From NCBI GenBank assembly GCA_041640655.1, contig JBEPZV010000005.1:1-64000 (forward strand): DNA of 64,000 nucleotides, in the 5' to 3' direction. Of this stretch, positions 17,506 to 50,553 are shown in pieces; position 1 is the first letter of the stretch; each line of letters opens with the position of its first letter. Below the pieces are notes generated by a model, which was not told the DNA's origin, searched no databases, and worked only from the letters and a program-made list of their open reading frames with translations. This DNA comes from a bacterium (GTDB taxonomy: Bacteria; Acidobacteriota; Blastocatellia; HR10). A program made the position numbers and the translations under genes.

Positions 17506-19563
17506 TCACGATCCCGGCGCTTTCAGGTAGGTATCGAACCATTCGATCACCGTCCGATACCACAGCTCGCTATTTTGCGGCTTCAGGATCCAGTGGCCCT
17601 CATCCGGGAAGAGCAAGAGCTTCGACGGCACGTTCCGACGCTGCAGGGCGGTGAACATCTGCAGGCCCTCGCTCACCGGCACGCGGAAATCCAGCTCTCC
17701 GTGGATGACGAGCGTTGGCGTCTTGAAATTCTGCGCGAAATTGTGCGGGGACCACCGCTCGTACAGCTCCTTATTCGTCCACGGCGTGCCGCGAAATTCC
17801 CATTCGGGGAACCACAGCTCCTCGGTCGAGCCGTACATGCTGATCAGGTTGAAGACGCCCGCATGCGAGACGAGCGCGCGGAAGCGATCCGTCTGCCCGG
17901 CGATCCAGTTGACGAGATAGCCGCCGTAAGAACCGCCGGCCGCACCGATGCGATTCGGATCCACGTAGCCGAGGCTGATGACATAATCCACGCCGCGCAT
18001 CACGTCCTCATAGACCTTGCCTCCCCAATCGCCGCTGATCTCATCAATGAACTTTTGTCCGAAGCCGATGCTGCCCCGTGGATTCGGCATGAAGATGACG
18101 TAGCCCGCCGCGGCGAACAGTTGCGCGTTCCAGCGATAATGGAAGACATCGGCCCAGACGCTTTGCGGCCCGCCGTGCAGGAGCACGATCATCGGGTATG
18201 TCTTCGCAGGATCGAAACCGGGCGGGGTGATGATCCATCCGTGCACGCGCGCCCCATCGGCGCCCGTGTACCAGATCGAGCGGACCTCTCCCCATTGGAT
18301 CGCCGCGAGCCGCTCCGCATTCATTCGGGTCAGAGGCGCGAGCTGGCTGCCATCCACGTTCACGCGATAGAGCTCGGCCGGTTGCGAGAAACCGTGTCGC
18401 AAGAAGATGAGCGTCTTCCCATCCGGCGTGATCTGCAGGCCCTCATTCGCTCCTGTCGGGACGAGTTTGCGGATCTCCCCTGTGGCGAGCGCCACGGTGT
18501 AGATCGGGAAGGCGCCGCCTTCGGCGACGGTGAAGTAGAGGCGTTGGCTATCGGGCGCCCACACGAACTCTTCGACCCAATGATCGAGGGCCTCGGTCAG
18601 ACTTCGCGTGCGTCCGGTCTGGCGATCGTAGAGCATCAGGCGCCATCGGTCGGATTCGAATCCCGGGCGTTCTTGCGCGCGATAGGCGATATAGCGCCCG
18701 TCAGGAGAGTAGAGGGGGGAATTGTCCGCCGCCGGATTGGTCGTCAGACGTCGGGGTTCGCCTCCGCGAACGGGGACGATCCACAGATCGCTGTTGGTGC
18801 TGATGGCTTCGTCGCGACCGTCCTTTCGCGCGAAGCAGAGTTCGCTCCCGTCAGGCGAGAAGGCGTAATCCTCGGGGCCGCCCAGGGAGAAGGGCGGGAC
18901 ATCGTGATCGCCCGGCGTGAGATCGCGCGCCGTGCCCCCCGCCGCGGGGATGACGAAGAGATGACGGCGCTTGCCGTCCTTCCAGGTGTCCCAGTGCCGG
19001 TAGAGCAAGCGAGTGTAGAGGCGCGCTTTGACCGGACTTCGCGCGCGCTCCTGCTCGCGCTGATGAGTACACGTCTCATCCGGGCAATCGGGATAGACCT
19101 CGGCCGTGAAGGCCAGATGCCGACCATCCGGAGACCAGAGCACCCCGGACGCTCCCGTCGGAAAACGCGTGAGCCGTTCGGGCTCACCGCCGGTGACGTC
19201 CATCACCCAGATCTGCGATGTCCCATCGCGCGTCGAAATGAACGCGAGCTTCCGTCCATCGGGCGACCATCGCGGACGCGCGTCCGCAGCCGGATGCGTC
19301 GTGAGCTGACGCGGCTCCCCTCCCGCTGTCGGCACGAGCCAGATGTCTGTATTCCGCGTGTTCTGCGCTTTGTCTATGGTCGTCACCGTGAACGCGACCC
19401 AGCGCCCGTCGGGTGAGACCTGCGGATCCCCCAGTCGTCGGATCGCCATCAGATCATCGAAGGTGAAGGGACGCCCTCCAGCAGCGGCGTGCCGAGGAAG
19501 AGTCAAAAGGGCGAGGAGGGTGAGAGCCGAGAAGATCCTCGCCGTTCGCACGGCCTGGCGCAT
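17506..19563 (-). CDS. S9 family peptidase with TolB-like propeller
   Basis: Signal peptide; repeated WSPDG; HGGP; GGSYGG nucleophile; DFRVP; DEGH. Confidence 0.95.
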   Translation of the reverse strand: MRQAVRTARIFSALTLLALLTLPRHAAAGGRPFTFDDLMAIRRLGDPQVSPDGRWVAFTVTTIDKAQNTRNTDIWLVPTAGGEPRQLTTHPAADARPRWSPDGRKLAFISTRDGTSQIWVMDVTGGEPERLTRFPTGASGVLWSPDGRHLAFTAEVYPDCPDETCTHQREQERARSPVKARLYTRLLYRHWDTWKDGKRRHLFVIPAAGGTARDLTPGDHDVPPFSLGGPEDYAFSPDGSELCFARKDGRDEAISTNSDLWIVPVRGGEPRRLTTNPAADNSPLYSPDGRYIAYRAQERPGFESDRWRLMLYDRQTGRTRSLTEALDHWVEEFVWAPDSQRLYFTVAEGGAFPIYTVALATGEIRKLVPTGANEGLQITPDGKTLIFLRHGFSQPAELYRVNVDGSQLAPLTRMNAERLAAIQWGEVRSIWYTGADGARVHGWIITPPGFDPAKTYPMIVLLHGGPQSVWADVFHYRWNAQLFAAAGYVIFMPNPRGSIGFGQKFIDEISGDWGGKVYEDVMRGVDYVISLGYVDPNRIGAAGGSYGGYLVNWIAGQTDRFRALVSHAGVFNLISMYGSTEELWFPEWEFRGTPWTNKELYERWSPHNFAQNFKTPTLVIHGELDFRVPVSEGLQMFTALQRRNVPSKLLLFPDEGHWILKPQNSELWYRTVIEWFDTYLKAPGS

Positions 19564-19640
19564 AGACAGCCTCCTTGCGGTGGACTCATATCGAGGGAGA
19601 GATTGTGACCGAGAACCGGTCGAGAGCGCAAATCGCACCT

Positions 19641-20876
19641 TCAGGACACGCCAACCAGCGCCAGCGCGATGAGCAGCGCGCGTTTCAGGCCGAGGGCGCG
19701 ATCTTCGGGCGCATACCATTCCTGGAGCGTATGCACGTTCCCCGCCTCGCCGCCGGTGCCGATGGCGATGGCCGGTACGCCTCGCGCGATGGGGAGATTG
19801 GCGTCGGTCGAAGCGCACTCCAGCCGGGGGACGCGACCGAGCCAGCGCGTGACCTCGCACGCGATCTGAACGATCTGGGCTTCAGGAGGGACGACTCCGG
19901 CTGGCCGATCCCCGAGCACTTCGATGCGATACTCCAGCCGCGCGAGATCGTCGCCGCTGCGACGTCGCGGTCGCTCCAAACGGACGGCGTGCTCCAGAGA
20001 TTCGCGAAGATAGTGTTCGATCCGCGCGATCTCCGCCGCCGACGTCGAGCGCACGTCCACGTCTAAGTACGCCGTTTGGGGGATCGCGTTGATGGCCTCG
20101 CCGCCGGCGATGCGCGTGAGGCTGATGCTCGTCCGTGGGGTGTCGGGCAGGGGGAAGCTCATCAACCGCAGCGCCGTGCGCACCAGGGGGTGAATGGGAT
20201 TCGGCGCGCCGAAATCCCCCCAGCTGTGTCCGCCCGGGCCGCGCACGTGGAGGCGATAGCGGCGCGATCCGAGCGCGTGATGGACGATGCCCTCAACCCC
20301 GGCACCTTCGAGCGCCAGAAACGCACTGATCGCGGGGATGCGCTCGGCGCCCTCGAAGAGATACCGCACGCCGCGAAGATCGCCCTCACCCTCTTCACCC
20401 ACCGTCCCGAGAAACAGCAGCGAGCCCGTGGTTCGGACCGCCGCCGCATTCAGGGCTTCTCCGAGCGCGAGCAGCGCCGCCAGCCCGCACGCATTATCGC
20501 TGATGCCCGGCGCGTGCAGTCGTCCGTTCTCCCAGCGGACGCGGATCATCGTCCCCGCAGGGAAGACCGTATCCAAATGCGCGGCGAGCACGACCAGGGG
20601 AGCGGCGTGCCATCCCGGCCGCCATCCGCGGACGTTGCCGACGCCGTCAATGTGGACGCCCACAAGCCCCAGATCACGAAACCGCTCGCGCAGATAAGCG
20701 GCGCGCGCCGCCTCGCCGAAGGGGGGAGCTGGGATCTCGCAGATTCGGATCTGCTCGCGCGTGACCTCTTCAGTGTGCGCCTCCAGCCAGGCCAGAGCGC
20801 GACGCACACTCGACTGCTGCAGGACAACGCTCAGGCGGGCATCCGTGGGGATCGTCGAGCAGCTCACATCACTCAT
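19641..20876 (-). CDS. M20/M25/M40 family metallo-hydrolase
   Basis: AHLDTVF, PGISDN, GEEGEG, GPGGHSW, STDAN, HTLQEW. Confidence 0.9.
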   Translation of the reverse strand: MSDVSCSTIPTDARLSVVLQQSSVRRALAWLEAHTEEVTREQIRICEIPAPPFGEAARAAYLRERFRDLGLVGVHIDGVGNVRGWRPGWHAAPLVVLAAHLDTVFPAGTMIRVRWENGRLHAPGISDNACGLAALLALGEALNAAAVRTTGSLLFLGTVGEEGEGDLRGVRYLFEGAERIPAISAFLALEGAGVEGIVHHALGSRRYRLHVRGPGGHSWGDFGAPNPIHPLVRTALRLMSFPLPDTPRTSISLTRIAGGEAINAIPQTAYLDVDVRSTSAAEIARIEHYLRESLEHAVRLERPRRRSGDDLARLEYRIEVLGDRPAGVVPPEAQIVQIACEVTRWLGRVPRLECASTDANLPIARGVPAIAIGTGGEAGNVHTLQEWYAPEDRALGLKRALLIALALVGVS

Positions 20877-22188: not shown

Positions 22189-23874
22189 CTAGGGCGAGGC
22201 CGGGTAGGAGCCGAGGATCTTCAGGAAATCCGTCATCCGGCGCACCTCCTCAATCGCCGCCGCGATCGTCGGGTCTTCGAGACTCCCCTCCAGGTCCACG
22301 TAGAAGACGTACTCCCAGGGGCGACCGGCGATCGGCCGGGATTCGAGCTTCACCAGATTGATGTTCCTGTCGGCGAAGACCTTGAGCGTGCGCAGCAACG
22401 CCCCCGGCACATTCGGCGTACTGTAGATGAGCGAGGTCTTGTTCGCCTTCTCCGTGATCACATGCTCGGCGGAGATGACCAGGAAGCGCGTGTAATTGCG
22501 CGGATCGGATTCGATGCTCTCCACGAGCACGGCCATGCCGAAGTGTTTGGCCGCATCGAGGCTGGCGATGGCCGCCGCATCGCGCAGGCCGTTCTCCTTG
22601 ATGTGCTTGACCGCGCCGGCCGTGTCCGAGACCTGATGGATCTCCCATTCCGGATGCGCCGCGAGGAAGAGATGACATTGCGCCATCGCCTGCGGATGCA
22701 CGTACACGCGACGGATCTCTTCGAGTCGCACGCCGTCATGCGCGATGAGATTGTGGATGATCCGCAGCTTCAGCTCACCCACGATGGCCACGTCATACTC
22801 CAGGAGCAGATCGTAGTTCTCGTGGATGCTTCCGGTCAGAGAATTCTCAATGGGAACGACGCCGTAATGGACGCGGCGGTGCGCGACGGCTTCGAAGACC
22901 TCGCGGAACGTCGCCTGCGGGACGGGCCGCGCGTTCTCGCCGAAGTACTGGAAGACGGCCTTCTCGCTGAAGGCGCCCGGCTCGCCCTGATAGGCGACCC
23001 GCAGCGGCGAGACCTTCACCCACGCGGCCGGTACAACCGGTTTGTACGAGAGGTCGAGTTGCCGCCCGACGACCGGCGCGATCACCTCCAGATCGCGCAT
23101 GAGCTTCTCCAGCTGCTCGAAGTACAGGCTCTGCGGGCCGTCCGAGAGCGCCTTCTCCGGCTCCGGATGCACCTCGACGATGATCCCATCGGCTCCGGCC
23201 GCGATCGCCGCCAGCGCCATCGCCGCCACGTGCTGCCGATTGCCCGTGCCGTGGCTCGGGTCCACAATGATGGGCAAGTGCGTCTTCGTCTTGAGGACGG
23301 GAATCAGACTGAGGTCGAGCGTGAAGCGGGAGTGATCCGAGAACGTGCGAATCCCCCGCTCGCAGAGGACGACGTTCTCGTTGCCCCGCACGAGGATATA
23401 TTCGGCCGCGGCCAGGAATTCCTCGAGCGTGGCGGCCATCCCCCGCTTGAGGAGGACGGGCTTGCGCTGTTCGCCCACGGCCTTGAGCAGCTCGAAGTTC
23501 TGCATGTTGCGCGCGCCGATCTGCAACATATCGGCATAGGCGGCGACCAGCTCCACATGCTCCGGCGAGAGGACTTCGGTCACCACCGGCAATCCCGTCC
23601 GCTCGCGCGCTTCGGCCAGAATCTTCAATCCCTCTTCCCCAAGCCCTTGGAAACTGTAGGGCGATGTGCGGGGCTTGAACGCTCCGCCGCGCAGCATCGT
23701 GACGCCCATGCGTTTGACGCGCTCGGCGACGTCCAACATCATCTCCCGATTCTCCACCGCGCACGGCCCGGCGATGACGACGAATTTCTCGCCGCCGATG
23801 ATCCGGTCACCGACGCGCACCAGCGTCCGTTCCTTCTTCGCCTCCCAGTTGACGAGCTTCAGTTGAACGGCCAT
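22189..23874 (-). CDS. Bifunctional DAHP synthase (type I-beta) / prephenate dehydratase with ACT domain
   Basis: [37 protein letters not shown]; then [28 protein letters not shown]. Confidence 0.93.
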
Positions 23875-24154: not shown

Positions 24155-24249
24155 GACGGGGCGAGTGAAGTCGGTGGATCGCTGGACAGAGCGCGGCCTC
24201 TTCTGCTATGTTCCCGCCCGAGATCGGATCTCAGACGAGGAGGGGGACG

Positions 24250-25944
24250 ATGCGGCGGATGGTCATCTTCGCGAGTCTTTTCCTCTCACTTTTGATCGGG
24301 CGAATCCCCGGGCAAGCGCCCACGTATGACATCCTCATTCGCGGAGGGCGGGTCATAGATGGAACGGGGAATCCCTGGTTTTCTGCCGACGTCGCCGTCA
24401 AAGACGGGCGCATCGTGGCCATCGGGCGATTGGAGGGGGCGACGGCCACCCGCGTCATTGATGCGCGTGGGTTGTACGTCGTGCCCGGATTCATTGATCT
24501 GCACTCGCACGCGGACGAGGGATTGGGCTCACCGCGCACCCGGGCGAATCCGAATATGATCATGCAGGGCGTGACGACGGTCGTCGTCAATCAAGATGGA
24601 CGATCGCCGTGGCCGATCGCCGAGCAGAAGGCGCTCTATGAGCGTCAGGGGATCGGGACCAACGTCGTCCTCATGGTCGGGCATGGGACGGTGCGCAGTC
24701 TCGTCATGAAGGAGGATATTCGACGGCCAGCGACTCCGGAAGAGATCGAGCGGATGAAGGCACTCGTGCGGCAGGGATTGGAGGAGGGCGCCTTTGGATT
24801 GAGCGCCGGACTGGAGTATGTGCCCGGTCGTTGGAGCACGACCGAAGAGCTGGTCGAGTTGGCGAAGGTCGTCGCCGCCTATGGCGGATTCTATATCGCG
24901 CATCAGCGAAGCGAAGGGCGCGATCCGATGTGGAAGAACGCGTCCGATCCGACGCCCTCAGGGGATCTGCTGCAGGCGGTGAAGGAGACGATCGAGATCA
25001 GCGCCCGATCGGGTGTCGTGGCCGTCGCGTCCCACTTGAAGGCGAAGGGGGCCTCGTACTGGGGCAGCAGCTATGCCGCCGTGCGCTTGATCGCCGAAGC
25101 GCGAGAGCGAGGTCTGCCCGTTTACGCCGATCAATATCCGTACGATACGACAGGGACAGATGGACAAACGGTGTTGATCCCTCTGTGGGCGCTGGCGGAG
25201 GAAGGCGTGGACGTGGGCGGGCAGCTCGGTCAGCTCGCGCGCGGGCGGGCCGAAGTGTTCGCGCGCCTCAAGGAGAATCTGCGGCGTCGCCTCGCCGATC
25301 CGAAGGTGCGCGAGACGATCCGCGCGGACATCGCCCATGAGATTGACCGTCGCGGCGGCGCGGATCGCATCATCGTTTACGAGTTCCCGGACCCGAAGTT
25401 TGTCGGGAAATCGCTCGGCGAGATCGCGCGCGAACGCGGCGAAGACCCGGTGGATACGGCCCTGTGGATGCAGCTGAACGGGCTGGATCGCCCGGGCGGA
25501 GCGCGTATGCGCGGTTTCTCCCTCTCGGAGCTGGACATCGAGCACATCATGCGGCAGGAGTTCACGGCGACCTGCAGCGATGCCGGCACGGTCGCCTTCG
25601 GTGAGGGGATTCCGCATCCGCGATACTACGGGGCCTTCCCGCGAAAGATTCGACGATATGTCTTCGAGCGAGGGGTGATCTCCCTGCCGTTCGCCATTCG
25701 CTCGATGACGTCGCTCCCGGCGCAGATCATCGGCCTGCGCGATCGCGGCTTGTTGCGCGAGGGGTATTGGGCCGACATCACCATCTTCGATCCGGAGAAG
25801 ATCGCCGACCGCGCGACCTATGAGAATCCGCATCAATATGCCGAGGGCATTCGCTATGTCTTGGTCAACGGCGAATTCGTGGTGGATGAGGGGAAGATCA
25901 CGGGGAAGCTCCCGGGCAAAGTCCTGACCCCCGCGCGGCGATAA
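24250..25944 (+). CDS. N-acyl-D-amino acid deacylase / amidohydrolase, exported
   Basis: Signal peptide; DGTG; PGFIDLHSHAD; GLEYVPG; HPRYYGAFPR. Confidence 0.92.
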   Translation: MRRMVIFASLFLSLLIGRIPGQAPTYDILIRGGRVIDGTGNPWFSADVAVKDGRIVAIGRLEGATATRVIDARGLYVVPGFIDLHSHADEGLGSPRTRANPNMIMQGVTTVVVNQDGRSPWPIAEQKALYERQGIGTNVVLMVGHGTVRSLVMKEDIRRPATPEEIERMKALVRQGLEEGAFGLSAGLEYVPGRWSTTEELVELAKVVAAYGGFYIAHQRSEGRDPMWKNASDPTPSGDLLQAVKETIEISARSGVVAVASHLKAKGASYWGSSYAAVRLIAEARERGLPVYADQYPYDTTGTDGQTVLIPLWALAEEGVDVGGQLGQLARGRAEVFARLKENLRRRLADPKVRETIRADIAHEIDRRGGADRIIVYEFPDPKFVGKSLGEIARERGEDPVDTALWMQLNGLDRPGGARMRGFSLSELDIEHIMRQEFTATCSDAGTVAFGEGIPHPRYYGAFPRKIRRYVFERGVISLPFAIRSMTSLPAQIIGLRDRGLLREGYWADITIFDPEKIADRATYENPHQYAEGIRYVLVNGEFVVDEGKITGKLPGKVLTPARR

Positions 25945-26023: not shown

Positions 26024-26953
26024 TCAGGGGCCGAGCAGGCGCAGGAGGATGGCCTTCTGGATGTGGAGGCGGTTCTCGGCCTGATCGAAGACGATGCTGT
26101 GCGGGCCGTCAATGACATCCCCGGTCACCTCGGCGCCGCGTTCGGCCGGCAGACAATGCATGAACACGACGTCGGGACGAGCCTGCTGCAGAAGGTCCGC
26201 GGTCACCTGGAACGGACGGAGGCGTCGCTCGCGTGCCGAGCGCTCTTCCGGCGGGATGTGGTAGCTCATCCACGTATCCGTGTAGACGATGTCAGCCTGA
26301 GCGACGGCCGCCCGCGCCTCGTGCAGGACTTCGATGACGGCTCCGGTCTCGCGAGCGGCTGCGCGCGCGCGTTGGAGAACCGTGGGATCGGGCTCGAAGT
26401 CGGGTCCTTCAGGGCAGCCCACACTCACGTTGAGACCGACCTTGGCGCCCCCCAGCAGCAGCGAATGGGTCACGTTGTTGTGCCCATCGCCCACGTAGGC
26501 GAGCTTGAGGCCGCGCCATCGGCCCTTCTTCTCGAGGATGGTCATCAGGTCGCCGAGCACCTGACAGGGATGCTCGTGATCGGTCAATCCGTTGATGACC
26601 GGCACGCTCGCATGCGCGGCCAGCTCCTCCAGATCGGCCTGCTGAAACAGGCGCGCCATGATCGCGTCCACATAGCGCGAGACCGTGCGCGCCACGTCGG
26701 CCAGGCTCTCTTTCCCCTTGCCCCAGGGAGACGTGCCGAGATCGTAGTAGATGGCGTGGCCGCCCATCTGCAGCATGGCCACCTCGAATGAGAGGCGCGT
26801 GCGCAGCGATGGTTTTTGGAAGAGCATGAGGAGCACGCGCCCTTGCAGAGCGTGCGCGACCTGACGGGGATCGCGTTTGATCTGTAGGCCCTGCTCGATG
26901 GTCTCTTCGATCCACTCGCGCGGCCAATCGGCCAGGGAGAGAAGGTGTCGCAT
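26024..26953 (-). CDS. argF: Ornithine carbamoyltransferase (probably catabolic)
   Basis: KPSLRTR, HPCQ, DTWMSYH, FMHCLP, QAENR. Confidence 0.93.
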   Translation of the reverse strand: MRHLLSLADWPREWIEETIEQGLQIKRDPRQVAHALQGRVLLMLFQKPSLRTRLSFEVAMLQMGGHAIYYDLGTSPWGKGKESLADVARTVSRYVDAIMARLFQQADLEELAAHASVPVINGLTDHEHPCQVLGDLMTILEKKGRWRGLKLAYVGDGHNNVTHSLLLGGAKVGLNVSVGCPEGPDFEPDPTVLQRARAAARETGAVIEVLHEARAAVAQADIVYTDTWMSYHIPPEERSARERRLRPFQVTADLLQQARPDVVFMHCLPAERGAEVTGDVIDGPHSIVFDQAENRLHIQKAILLRLLGP

Positions 26954-26965
26954 CGGGACCTCCTT

Positions 26966-27904
26966 TCACTCCGGATAGATGTGCGTTCCCGCCTGCTCGC
27001 GGAGAGCTGCCGCCGCCAGCTCCGGTCGCGTGATGATGACCTCGCGGCCGCCGCGCTGGAGAAAAGCGATGGCGGCTTCGATCTTCGGCCCCATGCTCCC
27101 CGGCGCGAAATGTCCTTCGGCCAGATAGTGTTGGGCTTCGGCCAGCGTCATCCGCTGGATGGCGCGCTCCTGGGGAGTGCCGAAATAGAGTTTCACCGTC
27201 TCGACGGCCGTCAGGTCAATCAACCGATCCGCCCGCAGGGCCGTCGCCAGCAGGCTCGACGCCAGGTCCTTATCCACGACAGCTTCGATGCCCACAAGCG
27301 TTCCATCCTCAGCGGCCACGGGAATTCCGCCGCCTCCCGCGGCCACGACGATCACGCCGTCCTCAAACAGGCGGGTGATCACCTCCTGCTCGATGATGCG
27401 AAGCGGCACCGGCGAGGGGACGGCGCGACGATAGCCGCGGTGCGCGTCTTCCGCGAGAACGTATCCCCTCCGCTTCAGTTCCTCGGCTTGCGCCGCCGTG
27501 TAGAACGGGCCGATGGGTTTGGTCGGCATCTGCAGGCGCGGATCCTGACGATCCACGACCACCTGCGTGAGGACGGTCGCGATCGGCCGCGCGATGCCGC
27601 GACGACGAAGCAGATTGTGCAGGGTGCGCTGAATGAGATACCCCATCTCGCCCTGCGACTGGGCGACGCAGACATCCAGCGGCAGATCGTATGCTTTCCC
27701 TCGCGCTTCCTCGACGCGAATGAGGATGTTGCCGACCTGCGGGCCGTTGCCGTGCGTGAGGGCGATCCGATGCCCCTCGTGGATCAATTCGACCACGCCG
27801 CCGAGTGAGGCCTCCAGATTCGCCAATTGTTCGGGAATCGTCCCGGCTTGCCCCGGTGTGATCAAGGCGTTGCCGCCGAGCGCGATGACGAGTCGTTCGC
27901 TCAT
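26966..27904 (-). CDS. arcC: Carbamate kinase
   Basis: IALGGNAL, THGNGPQVG, PTKPIG, GGGGIPV, EAVVDKD, GSMGPK; real start MSERL at 27904. Confidence 0.97.
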   Translation of the reverse strand: MSERLVIALGGNALITPGQAGTIPEQLANLEASLGGVVELIHEGHRIALTHGNGPQVGNILIRVEEARGKAYDLPLDVCVAQSQGEMGYLIQRTLHNLLRRRGIARPIATVLTQVVVDRQDPRLQMPTKPIGPFYTAAQAEELKRRGYVLAEDAHRGYRRAVPSPVPLRIIEQEVITRLFEDGVIVVAAGGGGIPVAAEDGTLVGIEAVVDKDLASSLLATALRADRLIDLTAVETVKLYFGTPQERAIQRMTLAEAQHYLAEGHFAPGSMGPKIEAAIAFLQRGGREVIITRPELAAAALREQAGTHIYPE

Positions 27905-29232
27905 CGTCGGTTCATCCTGGCGAGGAAGTCCCGTAAGACCTCGTGAAGCGTCGGCGAGCCGACTTCCTCCAGCTCGTAAGCGACGCGGCACGTCGGATGC
28001 CGCATCTGCAGGACGCGACGCAGATCCACAGGCGTGGCTACGAGCACGACGTCGCAGGGCACGCGATTGATCGTCTCTTCGAGTTCGCGCATCTGTTCGA
28101 GGCCGTAGCCCATTGCCGGCAGCAGCGGCCCGATGTGCGGATACTCGGCGAACGTCTCGCGGATGCTGCCGACCGCGTACGGGCGCGGATCCACCAGCTC
28201 GCGGGCGCCGAACTGTCGGGCGGCGAGCACGCCCGCTCCGTAACTCATCTCGCCGTGCGTCAGCGTCGGTCCATCCTCCACCACAAGCACGCGGCGATCG
28301 CGAATCGCCTCGGGCGCGTCCACGACGATTGTCAGGCCGGCCTCGATGACCATCGCCGTCGGGTTGAAAGCGCGAATATTTCGTCGAACGGTCTCCACAT
28401 CTTCCGGGCGCGCCGTGTTGACCTTGCTGATGATGAGGACATCGGCCCGCAGGAAATTCACTTCTCCGGGGAAGTACCCGCGCTCGTGTCCGGGCCGATG
28501 CGGATCCACGAGCACGATCTCCAGATCGGGCACGAAGAAGGGGAGATCGTTGTTCCCCCCGTCCCAGAGCAGGATGTCGGCCTCGGCCTCCGCCTGGCGC
28601 AGAATCCGCTCGTAATCCACGCCGGCGTAGACGATCACGCCGTTGCGCAGATGCGGTTCGTACTCCTCCATCTCCTCGATGGTGCACTTGTAGCGGCGCA
28701 GATCCTCGAGCGTCTCGAACCGTTGCACGACTTGCTGAGAGAGGTCGCCATAGGGCATGGGATGGCGCACGACGACGACGCGACAGCCCATCTCCCGAAG
28801 GAGCCGAGCGATCTTACGGCTCGCCGGACTCTTGCCGCAGCCCGTGCGCACGGCGCAGACGGAGATGACGGGCCGATCGGCGCGCAGCATCGTGGCGCGC
28901 GGCCCGAGCACGCGGAAGTCGGCGCCGTGCGCCAGCGCCCGCGCGGCCGCATGCATGACGTGCTCATGCGAGACATCGCTGTAGGAGAAGACGACCTGAT
29001 CAATCTCGTGCTCTTCGATCAACCGCTCCAAGTCCTCTTCCGGGTAGATGGGCAGCCCTTCGGGGTACAACTCGCCCGCCAGCTCGGGCGGATAGCGCCG
29101 CCCCTCGATGTTGGGGATCTGCGCCGCCGTGAAGGCGACGACCTCGTACTGCGGATCGTCGCGGAAGACGACATTGAAATTGTGAAAGTCTCGACCGGCT
29201 GCTCCCATGATGAGGATGCGCGTGCGCTTCAT
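27901..29232 (-). CDS. arcE: Arginine synthetase (ArcE)-like P-loop ligase (often annotated GTPase / cDPG synthetase-like)
   Basis: GAAGRDFHNFN, AVRTGCGKS, RHPMPYG, WDGGNND, EDGPTLTHG, LPAMGY; coupled to arcC and OTC. Confidence 0.8.
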   Translation of the reverse strand: MKRTRILIMGAAGRDFHNFNVVFRDDPQYEVVAFTAAQIPNIEGRRYPPELAGELYPEGLPIYPEEDLERLIEEHEIDQVVFSYSDVSHEHVMHAAARALAHGADFRVLGPRATMLRADRPVISVCAVRTGCGKSPASRKIARLLREMGCRVVVVRHPMPYGDLSQQVVQRFETLEDLRRYKCTIEEMEEYEPHLRNGVIVYAGVDYERILRQAEAEADILLWDGGNNDLPFFVPDLEIVLVDPHRPGHERGYFPGEVNFLRADVLIISKVNTARPEDVETVRRNIRAFNPTAMVIEAGLTIVVDAPEAIRDRRVLVVEDGPTLTHGEMSYGAGVLAARQFGARELVDPRPYAVGSIRETFAEYPHIGPLLPAMGYGLEQMRELEETINRVPCDVVLVATPVDLRRVLQMRHPTCRVAYELEEVGSPTLHEVLRDFLARMNRR

Positions 29233-29271: not shown

Positions 29272-30585
29272 TCAGATCACGCTCCCTTCAGGAACGACCG
29301 CATTCTTGGGGATGATCACGATGCCCTCGCGAATGTAGTAGTTTGGGCCATCGGCCTGCTGCGCCCCCGCTTCGTTCACAATGCGCGCGCGGGCGCCAAT
29401 GCGCACATTGCGATCCAGAATGGCGCGCCGAATGACGGCCCCTTCGCCGATGCCGATCTCCGGAAGGCCGCGCGCGCGATCCCGCTCCTGCTCCTCGGGC
29501 GAGGGGAAGAATTCCGCGCCGAACGCGATCACGCCGTCCACGTGAGCGCCGCGCTCCACCCGGCTGCGCAATCCGAGGATCGAGCGATGCACGCGCGCGC
29601 CCGTGAGCCGCGAGCCGTCGGCGATCAGGGAATCCACGATCTCGCTCTCCCGGAGTGTGGCCGGGGGGAGATAACGCGGTCGCGTATAGATCGGCGCATT
29701 CGGATCGTGCATGACAAGCGGTGGGTTCGGCGCGAGCATCCGCATGTGCGCTTCGTAATAGGCGCCGATCGTGCTCACATCATCCCAATACCCACGATGC
29801 CAATACGCATAGACGCGGAAGCGGGCGACGGCCAGCGGAAGCGCCTCCAAGCCGAAATCGAAGGGAGCGCTGGTCTGCTCCAACAGGGAGGCGAGCACGT
29901 CTCGCTTGAAGAGATAAACCCCTGTGGCGATCAGGAACATCTGCGGGTCATGCGCCAGGCGGCATTCGCGTAAGGTCTCCTGGCGCGGTTCCTCCTCGTA
30001 GCGGAGGACGCGCCAATCGGACAGACGGAGAGAATGCACGTCCGAGCCGGCGATCTTCACGACGCCTCGCGTGCGCGCCAACGCCTCATCCGCGAGGACG
30101 ACGACCAGCGTGAGATCGGCTTCCGCTTCCAAATGGAAGGCGACGAGCTCCTGGAGCGCGAGAGTGCTCACGTGATCACCGGGCAGAATCAGCACGTGGT
30201 GCGCGGGCCATGGCTCGAAGTGTCGCCAGGCGCGTCGGATCGCGTCCGTCGAACTGCGGTACCACTGGTGACTCTCCCAGGTCTGCTCGGCCGCGATGAT
30301 CTCGACGAATTCGGTGGATTCGGCGAACCGTCCCACCCGATACGTCTGCATCACGTGCCGATTGAGCGAGACCGAATTGAATTGCGTGAGCACGTAGATG
30401 CGGCGGAGCCCGGCATGCAGGCACCGGCTGAGGGCCAGATCAATGAGCCGATAGTGCCCCAGGAACGGCAGAGCCGCTTTGGCGCGCTCCGCGGTCAAGG
30501 GGAAGAGACGAGCACCCTGCCCGAGCCCTAACACGATCGTCAACACCTGCTGCCCGAAGGCGCGTGTGGTCGCCACCCCGTTCAT
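29272..30585 (-). CDS. Glucose-1-phosphate adenylyltransferase family protein, degenerate (GlgC/GlgD-like)
   Basis: RLFPLT.ERAK, YRLID, LTQFNSVSLNRH, C-terminal beta-helix; several conserved motifs altered. Confidence 0.85.
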   Translation of the reverse strand: MNGVATTRAFGQQVLTIVLGLGQGARLFPLTAERAKAALPFLGHYRLIDLALSRCLHAGLRRIYVLTQFNSVSLNRHVMQTYRVGRFAESTEFVEIIAAEQTWESHQWYRSSTDAIRRAWRHFEPWPAHHVLILPGDHVSTLALQELVAFHLEAEADLTLVVVLADEALARTRGVVKIAGSDVHSLRLSDWRVLRYEEEPRQETLRECRLAHDPQMFLIATGVYLFKRDVLASLLEQTSAPFDFGLEALPLAVARFRVYAYWHRGYWDDVSTIGAYYEAHMRMLAPNPPLVMHDPNAPIYTRPRYLPPATLRESEIVDSLIADGSRLTGARVHRSILGLRSRVERGAHVDGVIAFGAEFFPSPEEQERDRARGLPEIGIGEGAVIRRAILDRNVRIGARARIVNEAGAQQADGPNYYIREGIVIIPKNAVVPEGSVI

Positions 30586-30748
30586 GCCGCTCTCATTTTA
30601 GCCCATGAGCGCGCTCGGGCGCTACGACCCTTCCTCGATCTCCGGCGCATCGGGAATAAATCTCCCCCGTTGGTGTGTATTCTGATGTGGGAGCTTTCCG
30701 AAGAAGGTCCAGGCCGTGAGGAGGACAGACATCATGAACGGAGGAGAC

Positions 30749-31975
30749 ATGCGGCGTGCGAAGCTACTCGCCCTGGGCCTGATCATCGCGGGCTTCGGCC
30801 TGGGGCTCGGTGGGGCGAGGGCCACGTCCCCCGTCCCGCAGAAGTTTCAGATTCGCATCCCCTTGGGGATCCCGGCCGACCTCTGGGAGATGATGATCCC
30901 GGCGGATAATCCGATGACCGAGGCCAAGGTGGCCCTCGGTCGCGATCTCTATTTCGAGAAGCGGCTCTCGGTGGACAACACCGTCAGTTGCGCGACCTGT
31001 CACGATCCGCGGTTCGCGTTCACCGACGGCAAGCCGGTCTCCGAAGGGGTGGGCGGGAAAAAAGGCGCGCGCAACGCGCCGACGGTCTTGAACGCCATGT
31101 TCAATGAGGAGCAGTTCTGGGATGGGCGGGTGAAGACCCTCGAGGAGCAGGTCCTGCAACCGCTCATCAATCCCGTCGAGATGGCCATGCCCTCGCATGA
31201 GGCGGTCGTCGCCAAGGTGCGGGGGATTCCCGAATACGCGCAGCGCTTCCGGGAGGTCTTCGGCGGTCCCAATCCCGTGACCATCGAGAACATCGCGAAG
31301 GCGATCGCGGCCTTCGAGCGCACGCTCCTTTCGGGAGATTCACCCTTTGACCGCTTCATGGCGGGTGATCCCAAGGCGATCAGCGAGGCGGCCAAACGCG
31401 GATGGGAACTCTTCAAAGGGAAAGCCCGCTGCATCACCTGCCATGAGTTCAACCCTTCCTCGCCCTTCTTCACCGACTTCAAGTACCACAACATCGGCAT
31501 CGGCATGAAGGCCACGCGGAATTTCGAAGCGCTCGCGCGGCAGATTCAACAGATGGCGCAGGAGAATCGGCTGACGAAGGAGGCCTTAGATCGGCTCGCC
31601 CTCACCGAGGGCTTCTCCGAATTGGGCCGATTTCTCGTGACGCGTCAGCCCAAGGACGTGGGCGCGTTCAAGACCTCGCCGTTGCGCGACATCGAGCTGA
31701 CGGCTCCTTACATGCACGATGGGAGTCTGAAGACGCTCCGCGAGGTGATTGATTTCTACGACAAAGGGGGTGAGCCCAATCCGAATCTCGATGGCGGGAT
31801 TGTGAAGCTCAATCTCACCGAGCAGGAGAAGGCGGATTTGGAGGAATTCCTGAAGAGTTTGACCAGTGATTGGGTGCGGCGGGTCGCTCGCGGAGAGATC
31901 AAGCTGGCCGCCGAGCCCACTTCCGGGAATCCGACGCCGACGGTGGCGCGCGGTTCTCGGTCTTGGAGGAGGTGA
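30749..31975 (+). CDS. Diheme cytochrome c peroxidase/MauG-family protein
   Basis: Signal peptide; CATCH and CITCH; RNAPT, QFWDGR, FKT.PLR, TAPYMHDG. Confidence 0.93.
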   Translation: MRRAKLLALGLIIAGFGLGLGGARATSPVPQKFQIRIPLGIPADLWEMMIPADNPMTEAKVALGRDLYFEKRLSVDNTVSCATCHDPRFAFTDGKPVSEGVGGKKGARNAPTVLNAMFNEEQFWDGRVKTLEEQVLQPLINPVEMAMPSHEAVVAKVRGIPEYAQRFREVFGGPNPVTIENIAKAIAAFERTLLSGDSPFDRFMAGDPKAISEAAKRGWELFKGKARCITCHEFNPSSPFFTDFKYHNIGIGMKATRNFEALARQIQQMAQENRLTKEALDRLALTEGFSELGRFLVTRQPKDVGAFKTSPLRDIELTAPYMHDGSLKTLREVIDFYDKGGEPNPNLDGGIVKLNLTEQEKADLEEFLKSLTSDWVRRVARGEIKLAAEPTSGNPTPTVARGSRSWRR

Positions 31976-31980
31976 TCGTT

Positions 31981-33105
31981 ATGTGGCCCTTGAAATGGAA
32001 GAAGCGAGAACAGGAATATCGTCAGCAGCGCGAGGAGTTCTTCGAGGCCGTGAAGCGACTCAACCGCCGAGAGTTCATGAAGATCGCCGGTCTGTCGGCG
32101 GCGGTCTTCACGGCGAAGCAGGTCGTTCCCCCCCATTCGTTCCAAGTCGTGGACGTCGTGCGGGCCGATCCGCAGGAGAAGCCGCTCTTCCGCTTCGCCT
32201 ACATCTCCGACACGCATCTCTATGAGCGGGAGTTGAACGAGCGCTTCGTCAACGCGGCGCTTCGGGCCGTGCGCGACGTCAATGCGCTGGATCCGCCTCC
32301 TGATTTCGTCCTCTTCGGAGGGGATCTGGCGCAGCTCGGACAACCGAAGGAGTTGGAGTTGGGGAAGCAAATCCTGAGCGAGCTGAAGGTGCCCGTGAAG
32401 ATGATGGTCGGCGAGCATGATTGGTTCCTCGATATGGGCGAGAAGTGGCGTGAGCTGTTCGGGCCCGAGAATTACTCGTTCGACCACAAGGGGGTGCACT
32501 TCATCGTCCTGATGAGCGTGAACGAGAAGGACTTCTGGACCGAGCGGAAGATGACGCCGATGGAGCGCATGCTCACGGTCGCGCAGCTCGACAATCCCAT
32601 CCAGAGTCGGTTCGAGGTGGGCGAAGAAGGGCGCGAGTGGCTGCGGCGCGATCTGGCGCGGGTCTCCAAGGACACGCCCATCATCATCTTCTCCCACTCG
32701 CCGCTCTACAAGTACTATCGCCCGTGGAACTTCTGGACCGAGGACGCCGAGGCGATTCACGAGATGCTCTTCCCCTTCAAGTCGGTGACGGTCATTCACG
32801 GCCACACGCATCAGCTGCTGACTCATCGGATTCAGAACATTCACTTCCACGGGATGCTCTCGACGGCGTGGCCGTGGCCTTACGCTCCGGAGGGCTTGCC
32901 CAAGTTGACCGTGCCCATGGAGCGGCCCGATCCCTTCGATGAGGCCGATGGGACGGGGTGGGGCACGGTGGACGTGCATCGTGATGGCTATGTGGACAAG
33001 CACTACAACCTCTGGAGCCGAAATCCGATCACGGTCGCCAAGGCATATCTGGAATCGTGGGGCAAGGAGGCCGTCCCTCCGATTCCCGAATTTCCACCGT
33101 ATTAG
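31981..33105 (+). CDS. Calcineurin-like metallophosphoesterase with Tat-type signal
   Basis: NRREFMK; DTH, GGDL, GEHD, SHSP, HGHTH. Confidence 0.9.
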   Translation: MWPLKWKKREQEYRQQREEFFEAVKRLNRREFMKIAGLSAAVFTAKQVVPPHSFQVVDVVRADPQEKPLFRFAYISDTHLYERELNERFVNAALRAVRDVNALDPPPDFVLFGGDLAQLGQPKELELGKQILSELKVPVKMMVGEHDWFLDMGEKWRELFGPENYSFDHKGVHFIVLMSVNEKDFWTERKMTPMERMLTVAQLDNPIQSRFEVGEEGREWLRRDLARVSKDTPIIIFSHSPLYKYYRPWNFWTEDAEAIHEMLFPFKSVTVIHGHTHQLLTHRIQNIHFHGMLSTAWPWPYAPEGLPKLTVPMERPDPFDEADGTGWGTVDVHRDGYVDKHYNLWSRNPITVAKAYLESWGKEAVPPIPEFPPY

Positions 33106-33118
33106 ATGGGAGGAGGCG

Positions 33119-33724
33119 ATGAGGACAGCGAAATGGTTTCTCCTGGTCGCGGGGATTCTGGGGATCGCGCTTGTCGCGACATCGTGGGATCGGTCGGCCG
33201 CCGGCGCGCAGGAGTCGAAGCCATCCGGCGGCTCCGATCGCCTCGTCGTGCAGCTCTGTGATGGCGAGACGAAATTGGAGATCGCCGATGCGCGCGCGGG
33301 CGAGGTCCTGCCGCCCGAGAAAGCGCGCGAAGTGGCGCGCCGCATGATGGCCGCCTACGCCGAACAGCAGGCCAAGCAAGTCTCCAAATGGACGGCGCGC
33401 GATCGCTTGACGTGGGAGCGCGAGCAGAAGCGCGTGATCGAGGAGGGGTACAAGCTCTTCCATGATTGGAAGGCGCTGGGGGGCACCATCGGCATCTCCT
33501 GCGATATGTGCCATCCAGATGCGGCGGCGACGCATCCGGAGACCTATCCGAAGTTCCAGACCCAGCTCAAGCGCGTGGCCACCTTGCGCGACATGATCAA
33601 CTGGTGCATCGAGAATCCCATGAAGGGGAAGCCCCTGCCGCCGGACGATCCGCGCATGATCGCGCTCGAAGCCTATATCACGAGCACGCGCAAGGGCGTG
33701 CCACTCGAGCCTGGGAAACATTGA
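33119..33724 (+). CDS. Exported monoheme cytochrome c, TsdA/SoxA-like domain
   Basis: Signal peptide; CDMCH; YPKF...LRDMINWCIENPMKG...MIALEAY. Confidence 0.85.
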   Translation: MRTAKWFLLVAGILGIALVATSWDRSAAGAQESKPSGGSDRLVVQLCDGETKLEIADARAGEVLPPEKAREVARRMMAAYAEQQAKQVSKWTARDRLTWEREQKRVIEEGYKLFHDWKALGGTIGISCDMCHPDAAATHPETYPKFQTQLKRVATLRDMINWCIENPMKGKPLPPDDPRMIALEAYITSTRKGVPLEPGKH

Positions 33725-34117: not shown

Positions 34118-37348
<3,231 letters not shown>

Positions 37349-37443
37349 AGCCCCCGTTCGCGCGAATGGAGAGTATGGCGTATTGTGGCTCGAGAGAGCA
37401 AGAGGAAGGGCGGATCCTGATCTGGGCGGTTTCCATTCCCTTA

Positions 37444-37473
37444 TTGACAAATCAGGCCGCTTTATGCTATCTA
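37444..37473 (+). promoter_or_regulatory. Putative sigma70 promoter for the MltD-like gene
   Basis: TTGACA followed by TG-c-TATCTA. Confidence 0.5.
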
Positions 37474-37541
37474 GTGGCGCTGCCATGAAGATACGGAAGC
37501 GCCGGTTGTGGTCTTTTTTTCTGCCGCGAGGGGAAGAGCAT

Positions 37542-39404
37542 ATGTTACGACGGGTCGTCAGCGGACTCATCGGGATACAGCTTGGCCTTTTTTCGAGCGT
37601 CGCGGCCTTGTCGCCGGTGAGGGGGGAGTTCGAGGCTCGCGCTGCGGCTGCGCCACAGGGGGAGCTGCGCCCGGAAGCCTCTCCGCCATCGGCTCAGGAG
37701 GCGCAGCTCCATGCCCTCATTCAGCGCGCTGAGGCTCTGTTTCGACAAGGGGAGGCGGCCTACCGCCAGGGGGATTTCGTGCGCGCGCGCGAGGCGTTCG
37801 ATCGCGCGGTGGACGTGATCTTGGAGGCGCGCGTGAACGTGTCCGCCTATCCGCAGCTCCTGGCGTACTATCGTTCGCTGATCGAGCGCATCCACGCTTA
37901 TCAATTGGAAGCCGCCATGCAGGGCGCGGAGTTCCGACAACAGTATGAGCCGTCGCTCTTGGAGGAGCTGGCCAAGATCGAGTTGGGGAGAGAAGACATC
38001 GAGGCAGGGGCGCGCGAGACGGAGGAGATCACGCTGGACTTTCCGGTGACGATCACCCCTGAAGTCCGGCAGTTCATCCACTACTTCACGCGGAACCCCA
38101 AAGGGCGGGCGACGATGGAGGTGGGCTTGCGGCGCGCCGGGCGATATCTGGAGTTGGCGCGGCGCATCTTCCAGGAGGAAGGGGTCCCGCTGGACCTGGT
38201 GTGGCTGGCTCAGGCCGAGAGCAATTGGCGCCCCCATGCCCGCTCTCCGATGAATGCGCAGGGGATTTGGCAGTTCATTCCGGGGACGGGGGCCAAGTAT
38301 GGATTGCGGCAGACCAGTTGGCTGGACGAACGTTCCGGGCTGGAGCAGCCCACGCGCGCCGCCGCCCGCTACTTGAAGTTCCTCTATGAGCGCTACTTGG
38401 ATTGGCCCCTGGCCCTGGCCGCCTATAACTGTGGGGAGGCGACCGTGGATCGAGCGATCGCCGCCTCCGGATATGCCGATTTCTGGTATCTGCACCGCAA
38501 TCGCCTGCTGCCGGCTGAGACCCGCAATTATGTTCCCATCATCTTGGCGATCATCGCGATCGCGAAGAATCCGGAGCGCTACGGCTTCACCGACATTGAG
38601 CCGGAGCCGACTCTGGAGTATGAGACCGTGCCCGTCCAAGGACCGATTGACGTGCGCTTGATCGCCGAGGCAGTAGGCACGACGCCCGAGCACATCCGTG
38701 ACCTCAATCCCGAACTCAAGCGTGGATACGTGCCGCTGGGAGAGACCTACACGGTGCGTGTGCCGGTGGGTACGGGCGAGCAGCTGATCGCCCTGCTGGA
38801 GCGTGTGCCCGTGGGGAATCGAGATTCTTGGCGCATCCACAGCGTCGCGGAAGGGGAGACGCTTCAGAGCATCGCCGAGGAACATCGCGTGAGCGCCGAA
38901 GAGATCGCGCGGGTGAACGATTTGGGGGCTGAAGCGAGGCTCCCGGCGGGCACGCGACTGATCATCCCGACGTCGGTGCGGCGCCAGCCTCTCAGGAGCG
39001 TGCCGGGCGTAGAGCTGGCGCGCCTCTCGGTCGTACGCCTGACCATCCGCGTGCGTCCGGGAGATACGATGACGCGCATCGCGGCGCGCTACGGCCTCTC
39101 GGCTCGTGATATCGCGCGCCTCAACGGCCTGAGCCCGCGAGCGAAATTGCGCGCTGGTCAAACGCTGGTCATCGCCGTGCCCTCGGAGCGAGTGAAACGA
39201 TCGAACGTGTCCAGGACGTCTTCTCGAACCAAGAGTCTCGCTCCCGCGCGCGGACGTCGCTTTACATATCGCGTGCGTCCTGGGGATACGCTCCTGGAGA
39301 TCGCCAATCGGTATGAGGTGACAGTCGCTGATCTTCGTCGGTGGAACCGCCTCTCGGGCGACCTCATCAAACCCGGACAGATCTTGGTGATCTATCGGCA
39401 GTGA
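37542..39404 (+). CDS. Membrane-bound lytic murein transglycosylase D-like (SLT + LysM repeats)
   Basis: [23 protein letters not shown]; three LysM-like repeats (GETL, PGDTM, PGDTL). Confidence 0.93.
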
Positions 39405-50287: not shown

Positions 50288-50332
50288 AGGTCGTTCCCTC
50301 CCATGAGTCAAACTCCCCTGCGTTCCGCCAAA

Positions 50333-50384
50333 CCATAGAGTATCGCGGCGGGGCTTGTCAAAAGGCGAAACCGCTGCGTATAAT
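50333..50384. promoter_or_regulatory. Overlapping divergent sigma70 promoters
   Basis: Plus: TTGTCA-18nt-TATAAT (50355-50384); minus: TTGACA-17nt-TATGGT (50361-50333). Confidence 0.65.
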
Positions 50385-50553
50385 CCCGCCGCATCTCGCG
50401 CGGAGGCGACCGATGTCGAGCCCACATCCGGCACAACAGGAGGGGATTCGCGGAGTTTGCCTGGTGCGGAATTATGGCCAGCGTAATGCGTCGCTCTGCA
50501 GCTGGTATCATCGCGGGTTCTCACGGGACAAAAGTGCGGGGTGAAGTGAGGAC

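Follow-up and report, generated by a model that had tools for sequence, protein, structure and literature searches.

The stretch analysed here is a window of 64,000 nucleotides (about 64% G+C) from contig JBEPZV010000005.1 of an acidobacterial assembly, and it carries three tightly packed genes on the minus strand, read from 29232 down to 26024. From their open reading frames (ORFs), the order is arcE-arcC-OTC: an arginine synthetase (ArcE) family protein, a carbamate kinase (CK), and an ornithine carbamoyltransferase (OTC)-type protein, which we call P0001, P0002, and P0003, respectively. We consider it likely that these genes encode an arginine synthetase pathway of the Thermococcus kodakarensis type. 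The cluster is laid out as follows:

27901..29232, minus strand: arcE, arginine synthetase family protein of 443 amino acids (P0001), from its translation and its similarity to Thermococcales family members
26966..27904, minus strand: arcC, carbamate kinase of 312 amino acids (P0002), from TIGR00746 and NF009007
26954..26965, minus strand: spacer of 12 nucleotides between arcC and the carbamoyltransferase gene, with a Shine-Dalgarno-like AAGGAGG, from direct reading of the sequence
26024..26953, minus strand: OTC-type carbamoyltransferase of 309 amino acids (P0003), from TIGR00658 and NF001986

The TGA stop codon of arcE and the ATG of arcC share three bases within the ATGA at 27904..27901. 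This overlap and the 12-nucleotide spacer with its ribosome-binding site suggest that translation of the three enzymes is coupled, and we infer that the genes are also transcribed together. In P0001, the motif GAAGRDFHNFN occupies residues 10–20 (nucleotides 29205..29173) of the N-terminal domain, and the P-loop domain contains both the Walker-A-like RTGCGKS at residues 129–135 (28848..28828) and WDGGNND at residues 223–229 (28566..28546). The initial annotation of the locus had described a P-loop protein with the first and last of these motifs, overlapping a carbamate kinase gene by ATGA and followed, 12 nucleotides further on, by an OTC; reading of the sequence found this description exact throughout.

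By sequence and by fold, P0001 is a member of the ArcE family. ArcE is the product of TK2200 in T. kodakarensis (Michimori, Yokooji and Atomi 2024; PMC11032458), and the abstract of that paper gives the same reversible reaction as the initial annotation, Arg + ADP + Pi = Cit + NH3 + ATP. P0001 aligns over 441 residues and without gaps with a protein of Pyrococcus horikoshii OT3 (65% identity, 631 bits), and over 436 residues with one of Thermococcus sp. M39 (66% identity), which supports the proposal that the P-loop protein is an arginine synthetase of the T. kodakarensis type. Identity reaches 51% with a protein of Hyperthermus butylicus (E 3e-165) and 49% with one of Ignisphaera aggregans (E 7e-167). 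Table S1 of the supplement to PMC11032458 scores P. horikoshii, H. butylicus, and I. aggregans as arcE = 1, and the legend of its figure S10 defines homologs by a BLASTP E-value against TK2200 below 1e-100 and a length above 380 amino acids. We assumed that each of the archaeal proteins compared is its species' arcE homolog, an assumption supported by their weak match to cyclic 2,3-diphosphoglycerate (cDPG) synthetase (39 bits between the P. horikoshii protein and the solved enzyme 9sxb).

In an alignment of 44 family members, P0001 has the consensus residue at 68 of the 69 columns that are conserved in at least 90% of the sequences, the exception being L60 in place of I, and it bears the family motifs G-x-x-G-R-D-x-H-x-F, T-G-x-G-K-S (Walker A), R-H-P-M, E-E-x-E-E, and W-D-G-G-N-N-D. 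FastTree analysis of 51 rows grouped P0001 and the Thermococcales clade inside a single clade of 21 rows (support 91), with the crenarchaeal proteins outside; P0001 was sister to a Blastocatellia protein within a group of Acidobacteriota and Nitrospirota, and a quick IQ-TREE analysis without the Thermococcales rows gave it the same neighbours. When a set of 5.8 billion proteins was searched, each of the 8000 candidates scored against P0001 was significant, and its closest relatives among the matches listed, including proteins of Blastocatellia metagenome-assembled genomes (MAGs), were 92% identical to it. Filter-free phmmer searching of 1.84 billion cluster representatives retrieved 3878 proteins at E ≤ 0.001, including 726 at E ≤ 1e-30. 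Searches were also started from two representatives: the crenarchaeal P0136 led to Hyperthermus, Ignisphaera, and Pyrodictium proteins, with no Thermococcales among the matches listed, and P0143, chosen for its amino-acid composition, led to three proteins of Thermococcus sp. and one of P. horikoshii among the matches listed. Scores within the family range from 425 to 1000 bits. We consider it very probable that P0001 is an ArcE-family enzyme acting on arginine and citrulline, and we would expect it to catalyse the reaction given above.

One of the cluster representatives, P0229 (806 amino acids), is an ArcE relative in which intein and LAGLIDADG domains precede the part that matches residues 153–439 of P0001.

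The presence of arcE homologs in many bacteria, among which Acidobacteria (Koribacter), Nitrospira, and Chloroflexi are named, and the location of some of them near arcB and/or arcC, are already reported in PMC11032458. To count such linkages, contigs were scanned with two conserved peptide patterns, which gave at least 600 rows; the best 80 loci (58–69% identity) were kept and the neighbours of arcE scored by tblastn. This set is not a random sample: it consists mostly of MAGs, many of them from Chloroflexota, and includes no Blastocatellia or Thermococcales locus. In 18 of the 80 loci, a carbamate kinase gene lies 3' of arcE and shares its strand, with a gap of at most 35 nucleotides in 12 of these 18, and because a single-copy, non-universal gene recurs at this position, the arcE-arcC arrangement exceeds what chance would produce. 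OTC is found downstream of arcE in eight loci. Both partners occur in six, with the order of the window, arcE-arcC-OTC, in L007, L049, L068, and L075, and with OTC first in L017 and L033. Another association concerns the arginyl-tRNA synthetase gene (argS), located directly 5' of arcE and on the same strand in 14 loci, mostly from Chloroflexota (L006, L013, L014, L022, L025, L028, L030, L036, L045, L067, L073, L077, L079, and L080), none of which has a carbamate kinase or OTC gene nearby; in L008, a weak arginyl-tRNA synthetase match lies 2.7 kb downstream on the opposite strand. Altogether, 35 of the 80 loci have at least one arginine-related neighbour of arcE. The two activities are even joined in one polypeptide, as P0128 (766 amino acids), one of the 150 cluster representatives listed, is a natural fusion of carbamate kinase and ArcE: its residues 1–310 are 50% identical to P0002 and score 337 bits with TIGR00746, and residues 328–758 are ArcE, a domain order that is the reverse of the gene order in the window.

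Other genes were also seen around arcE in this set. A succinyl-CoA-synthetase-beta-like gene follows arcE-arcC in seven loci (L016, L038, L039, L046, L069, L072, and L078), an aldehyde dehydrogenase gene precedes arcE in L016, L038, and L039 (65–100% identical to the L016 query), weaker aldehyde dehydrogenase matches (27–29%) lie upstream in L043, L069, and L072, and a nucleoside diphosphate kinase gene is nearby in four loci.

The AlphaFold2 model of P0001, built from the 44-sequence alignment (predicted local distance difference test score, pLDDT, 93.9; predicted TM-score, pTM, 0.91), has a P-loop kinase fold resembling LpxK, as does the model of TK2200, for which PMC11032458 names LpxK 4EHY as structural neighbour. 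Among solved structures, the best match is the cDPG synthetase of Methanothermus fervidus (8oru/8ork; E 2.5e-17, 14–15% identity, TM-score 0.44), followed by LpxK (4ehy; E 8.2e-9, TM-score 0.65 on the target). HypB, dethiobiotin synthetase (1dts, E 5.7e-5), signal recognition particle GTPases, MeaB, and cobyrinic acid a,c-diamide synthase (5if9, E 6.3e-4) rank lower, and no ArcE structure was present in the PDB copy searched. In cDPG synthetase, according to PMC10690619, an LpxK-like P-loop domain is joined to an N-terminal domain that helps to form the substrate site of the other protomer. The invariant motif in the N-terminal domain of ArcE may, by analogy, border the site for arginine and citrulline.

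The accessible part of PMC11032458 offers no mechanism for ArcE. A candidate chemistry would have the ureido oxygen of citrulline phosphorylated by ATP, after which ammonia would displace the phosphate to yield arginine; arginine breakdown would follow the same steps in reverse. Dethiobiotin synthetase and cobyrinic acid a,c-diamide synthase activate a carbonyl or carboxyl group by phosphorylation before nitrogen is added, and CTP synthase is placed in the same fold class and chemistry. It is the fold class common to the first two enzymes and ArcE that leads us to propose phosphorylation here. They share with ArcE the nucleotide-binding core and the formal chemistry (carbonyl + ATP + NH3 -> C=N + ADP + Pi) but are remote from it (12–15% identity), and the mechanistic parallel is one that we infer.

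The initial annotation had predicted that standard annotation would miss this enzyme, and this is what we found. Pfam matched P0001 to LpxK only, below threshold (19.3 bits for a cutoff of 27), NCBIfam gave no match above cutoff, and the two libraries together provided no ArcE family model, even for the Thermococcales proteins. Public names are misleading as well: relatives from Blastocatellia MAGs with 92% identity are called "cyclic 2,3-diphosphoglycerate synthase," further matches with about 70% identity "GTPase," "predicted GTPase," or "tetraacyldisaccharide 4'-kinase," and "arginine synthetase" is none of the source names among the relatives listed. Only "putative GTPase" clusters were found in the ESM Atlas, with cobW on about one third of their members, and ArcE homologs had previously been annotated as hypothetical proteins or putative GTPases, as noted in PMC11032458. 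It is because of these missing models and misleading names that routine annotation overlooks ArcE.

The two partner enzymes are covered by curated models. P0002 scores 363.2 bits with TIGR00746 (cutoff 358.25) and 360.6 with NF009007 (cutoff 266), and its closest solved relative is 1e19 (298 bits). P0003 scores 358.9 bits with TIGR00658 (cutoff 280.85) and 372.6 with NF001986 (cutoff 306), and stays under the cutoffs of the sister families putrescine carbamoyltransferase (267.8 vs. 500) and N-acetylornithine carbamoyltransferase (195.7 vs. 288); its closest solved relatives are 1a1s and 1pvv (318 bits). We take 1e19, 1a1s, and 1pvv to be Pyrococcus furiosus proteins. P0003 keeps the marks of carbamoyl-phosphate binding and of OTCs, namely FQKPSLRT, with the Lys of FxKxSxRT, HPCQ, and HCLP, with its Cys. 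Its SLRTR in place of STRTR is not unusual, because SLRTR is also found in six of the eight arcE-linked OTCs from other loci, the remaining two being L071 (SLRTH) and L047 (STRTR).

The following genes form part of the context of the cluster in the window:

29272..30585, minus strand: glgC-like glucose-1-phosphate adenylyltransferase gene, 39 nucleotides upstream of arcE (NF002772, 432 bits, below the cutoff of 537)
24208..25944: amidohydrolase gene, downstream of the cluster and convergent with it
34118..37570, minus strand: carB, large subunit of carbamoyl-phosphate synthase (NF003671, 1728.8 bits, cutoff 599)
17506..19860, minus strand: large Dpp5-like S9 dipeptidyl peptidase with a TolB-like propeller
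48077..50524, minus strand: a further large Dpp5-like S9 dipeptidyl peptidase with a TolB-like propeller

Besides the three cluster proteins, 43 ORFs were scanned with NCBIfam and 25 with Pfam, these two sets being partly the same. Among the ORFs scanned, there was no arginine deiminase gene (arcA), argG, or argH, no arcD, and no amidinotransferase-type protein, and it is arcE, not arcA, that lies upstream of arcC. The absence of arcA from the window, pointed out in the initial annotation, thus holds among these ORFs, which says little about the genome. With carB, carbamoyl phosphate has a conventional source in this organism, whereas T. kodakarensis lacks carbamoyl-phosphate synthetase and uses the arginine synthetase pathway to obtain this compound (PMC13260591). 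Next to the two dipeptidyl peptidases, the window encodes an Xaa-Pro aminopeptidase, two M16 peptidases, one M20, and one M48, which fit a peptide-degrading lifestyle. Over 43 confident ORFs (17,439 amino acids), I+V+Y+W+R+E+L make up a fraction of 0.449, Arg accounting for 9.9% and Lys for 3.1% of the residues; under the Zeldovich formula, this value points to a thermophile. The host acidobacterium is therefore probably heat-loving, which agrees with how closely all three cluster proteins resemble those of Thermococcales. The glgC-like gene and the convergent amidohydrolase gene were considered as pathway members and rejected, neither of them adjoining arcE in any of the 80 loci. No carA is adjacent to carB, and the ORF scanned beside it encodes a MltD/LysM-type protein on the other strand.

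If the three enzymes work as their families suggest, ArcE would convert L-arginine, ADP, and Pi reversibly into L-citrulline, NH3, and ATP, the OTC-type carbamoyltransferase would release ornithine and carbamoyl phosphate by phosphorolysis of citrulline, and carbamate kinase would transfer the phosphate of carbamoyl phosphate to ADP. The net result would be the conversion of arginine into ornithine, CO2, and two NH3 with two ATP formed at the substrate level, compared with one in the deiminase route. We favour, with some caution, a mainly catabolic use in this host, because ArcE is translationally coupled to carbamate kinase, because carB, 5 kb away, frees the supply of carbamoyl phosphate from the ArcE route, because the window is rich in peptidases, and because the published equilibrium (PMC11032458) leans toward citrulline and ATP. 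The last two steps are those of the arginine deiminase pathway (arcABC), which likewise turns arginine into ornithine, CO2, two NH3, and ATP; the first step of the window pathway would differ in that an energy-conserving P-loop enzyme replaces the hydrolytic ArcA. The cluster shares with the T. kodakarensis pathway the ArcE family and its length class, LpxK as structural neighbour, the carbamate kinase and OTC partners, and the lack of arcA nearby, and is distinguished from it by being bacterial, by its contiguous and overlapping genes, by the presence of carB, and by an OTC-type protein without the sequence SMG described below.

Several observations weigh against this pathway or its catabolic use. 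The family placement of P0001 was obtained through Thermococcales and crenarchaeal proteins other than TK2200, and the literature on "arginine synthetase" since 2024 (subscription journals lying outside) amounts to work on T. kodakarensis and one modelling paper, with no assay of a bacterial ArcE. The score of P0002 with the equivalog model TIGR00746 barely exceeds the cutoff. In P0003, the 240's loop reads DTWMSYH (nucleotides 26278..26258, minus strand), which has one extra residue and is not the DxxxSMG of OTCases, whereas SMG is present in all eight arcE-linked OTCs from other loci and in the solved OTCs 1a1s, 1pvv, and 4ep1. With regard to transcription, the glgC-like gene ends just 39 nucleotides before arcE and may be on the same transcript, the promoter scan of the surroundings showed no promoter-like site, the matches of the terminator scan were all intragenic, with none convincing around the cluster, and no Rfam element was detected there; an inverted-repeat scan of the same surroundings gave nothing usable. 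The cluster contains no arginine/ornithine transporter or regulator, 45 of the 80 related loci show no arginine-related neighbour, and the absence of arcA, argG, and argH applies to the 64-kb window alone.

The public names given to the relatives of P0001, "cyclic 2,3-diphosphoglycerate synthase," "GTPase," and "tetraacyldisaccharide 4'-kinase," could be taken at face value, in which case it would be a cDPG synthetase, a GTPase or metallochaperone, or an LpxK-type kinase, adjacent to arcC by accident. The weak LpxK and cobW profile matches agree with such names, as does the finding that cDPG synthetase and LpxK are the nearest solved folds, and P0001 resembles the cDPG synthetases (M. fervidus 8ork/8oru; 9sxb) in combining an N-terminal with an LpxK-like P-loop domain. 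However, we give this explanation almost no weight. P0001 scores 22.7 bits against 9sxb (E 4e-4), so that the clustering with cDPG synthetases named in the initial annotation as the outcome that would speak against its reading did not occur; P0001 and the P. horikoshii protein are equally remote from true cDPG synthetases, and the profile of 44 ArcE members scores 66 bits against cDPG synthetase. These values are to be set against the 631 bits that link P0001 to a Thermococcales ArcE-family protein. The LpxK match falls short of its cutoff, the fold matches rest at 14–15% identity (TM-score 0.44 for the cDPG synthetase), and gene neighbourhood and substrate also differ, the linkage with arcC, OTC, and argS recurring across phyla and a fusion with carbamate kinase being known. 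In the phylogeny of PMC11032458, cDPG synthase homologs are remote relatives that serve as outgroup to ArcE. Another possibility is that the enzymes act on a relative of arginine and citrulline, the altered loop of P0003 preferring another amine and ArcE being co-adapted to it. The 240's loop sets the specificity for the second substrate, DxxxSMG separates OTCases from other transcarbamylases, and its Asp, Ser, and Met bind ornithine (PMC4581275); of nine aligned arcE-linked proteins, P0003 is the sole one without SMG. This seems quite improbable to us all the same, as the loop retains D226 and S230, only Met-Gly being replaced by Tyr-His, and the OTC-type Lys of FxKxSxRT and Cys of HCLP are in place. 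P0003 exceeds the cutoffs of two curated OTC models but not those of the putrescine and N-acetylornithine enzymes, and conservation is high in ArcE, with the consensus residue at 68 of the 69 conserved columns and 65% of its residues identical in Thermococcales proteins.

More serious is the question of direction. The same enzymes could run in reverse, with the OTC-type enzyme providing citrulline and ArcE making arginine from citrulline, ATP, and free ammonia in place of ArgG/ArgH; the cluster would then form the last part of arginine biosynthesis, or it could serve as a reversible buffer of the arginine pool. The ArcE reaction is reversible and usable for synthesis in T. kodakarensis, and bacteria that have arcE and lack argG/argH are named in the same study (PMC11032458). 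The ArcE route would cost one ATP-to-ADP step, whereas synthesis through ArgG/ArgH takes two ATP equivalents (PMC13763154), and carB in the window could provide the carbamoyl phosphate. The argS-arcE pairs, which are found in 14 of the 80 loci and mostly in Chloroflexota, also hint that other lineages may use ArcE for biosynthesis or homeostasis, and they count here against a purely catabolic view of the family. For the window cluster, we nevertheless judge synthesis or buffering unlikely: the coupled partner is carbamate kinase, the enzyme that breaks down carbamoyl phosphate in the deiminase pathway, and since carB is present it would not be needed for synthesis; the cluster includes no other arginine-biosynthesis gene; and the equilibrium constant is 10.1 at 80 °C, in favour of citrulline and ATP (PMC11032458). 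The unusual SYH loop with its insertion, the arcE-arcC coupling, and the occurrence of a CK-ArcE fusion elsewhere leave some room for another arrangement, in which the module is not a plain copy of the archaeal one but a physical assembly of ArcE, carbamate kinase, and possibly the carbamoyltransferase, working in either direction or on a substrate other than ornithine/citrulline. We hold this to be improbable. If true, an ArcE-CK assembly could handle labile carbamoyl phosphate at high temperature, and a thermophilic bacterium would gain ATP-sparing, aspartate-independent arginine synthesis in addition to a catabolic route yielding two ATP.

The arginine synthetase pathway, mainly catabolic, thus remains the reading that we prefer, and the initial annotation, which had proposed this pathway, is supported overall, with the activity and the direction as predictions. 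Published work already describes the family with its reaction and pathway, its spread among bacteria, and its linkage to arcB/arcC. What is added here is a compact bacterial example, a count of the linkages, the CK-ArcE fusion, the argS linkage, the odd OTC loop, and confirmation of the gap in the profile libraries. An arginine synthetase lifts the yield of arginine fermentation to two ATP per arginine, and it can also turn citrulline into arginine in a single step without aspartate, a route that has been modelled for arginine production (PMC13763154). The sole enzyme curated for this reaction is archaeal (PMC13763154), and the compact, overlapping arcE-arcC-OTC cluster of a probable thermophile is a convenient second test case. 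Because family models are lacking and names mislead, metabolic reconstructions of Acidobacteriota, Nitrospirota, Chloroflexota, and many others miss the pathway.

Two further features were recorded in the window:

22189..23874, minus strand: one ORF of 561 amino acids joining 3-deoxy-D-arabino-heptulosonate 7-phosphate (DAHP) synthase (residues 4–272, NF006421, 448 bits) and prephenate dehydratase (residues 292–560, NF008865, 250 bits)
30716..33724, plus strand: three adjacent genes, divergent from glgC, for a MauG/MbnH-like di-haem enzyme, a metallophosphoesterase, and a protein with a SoxA/TsdA-type cytochrome c domain

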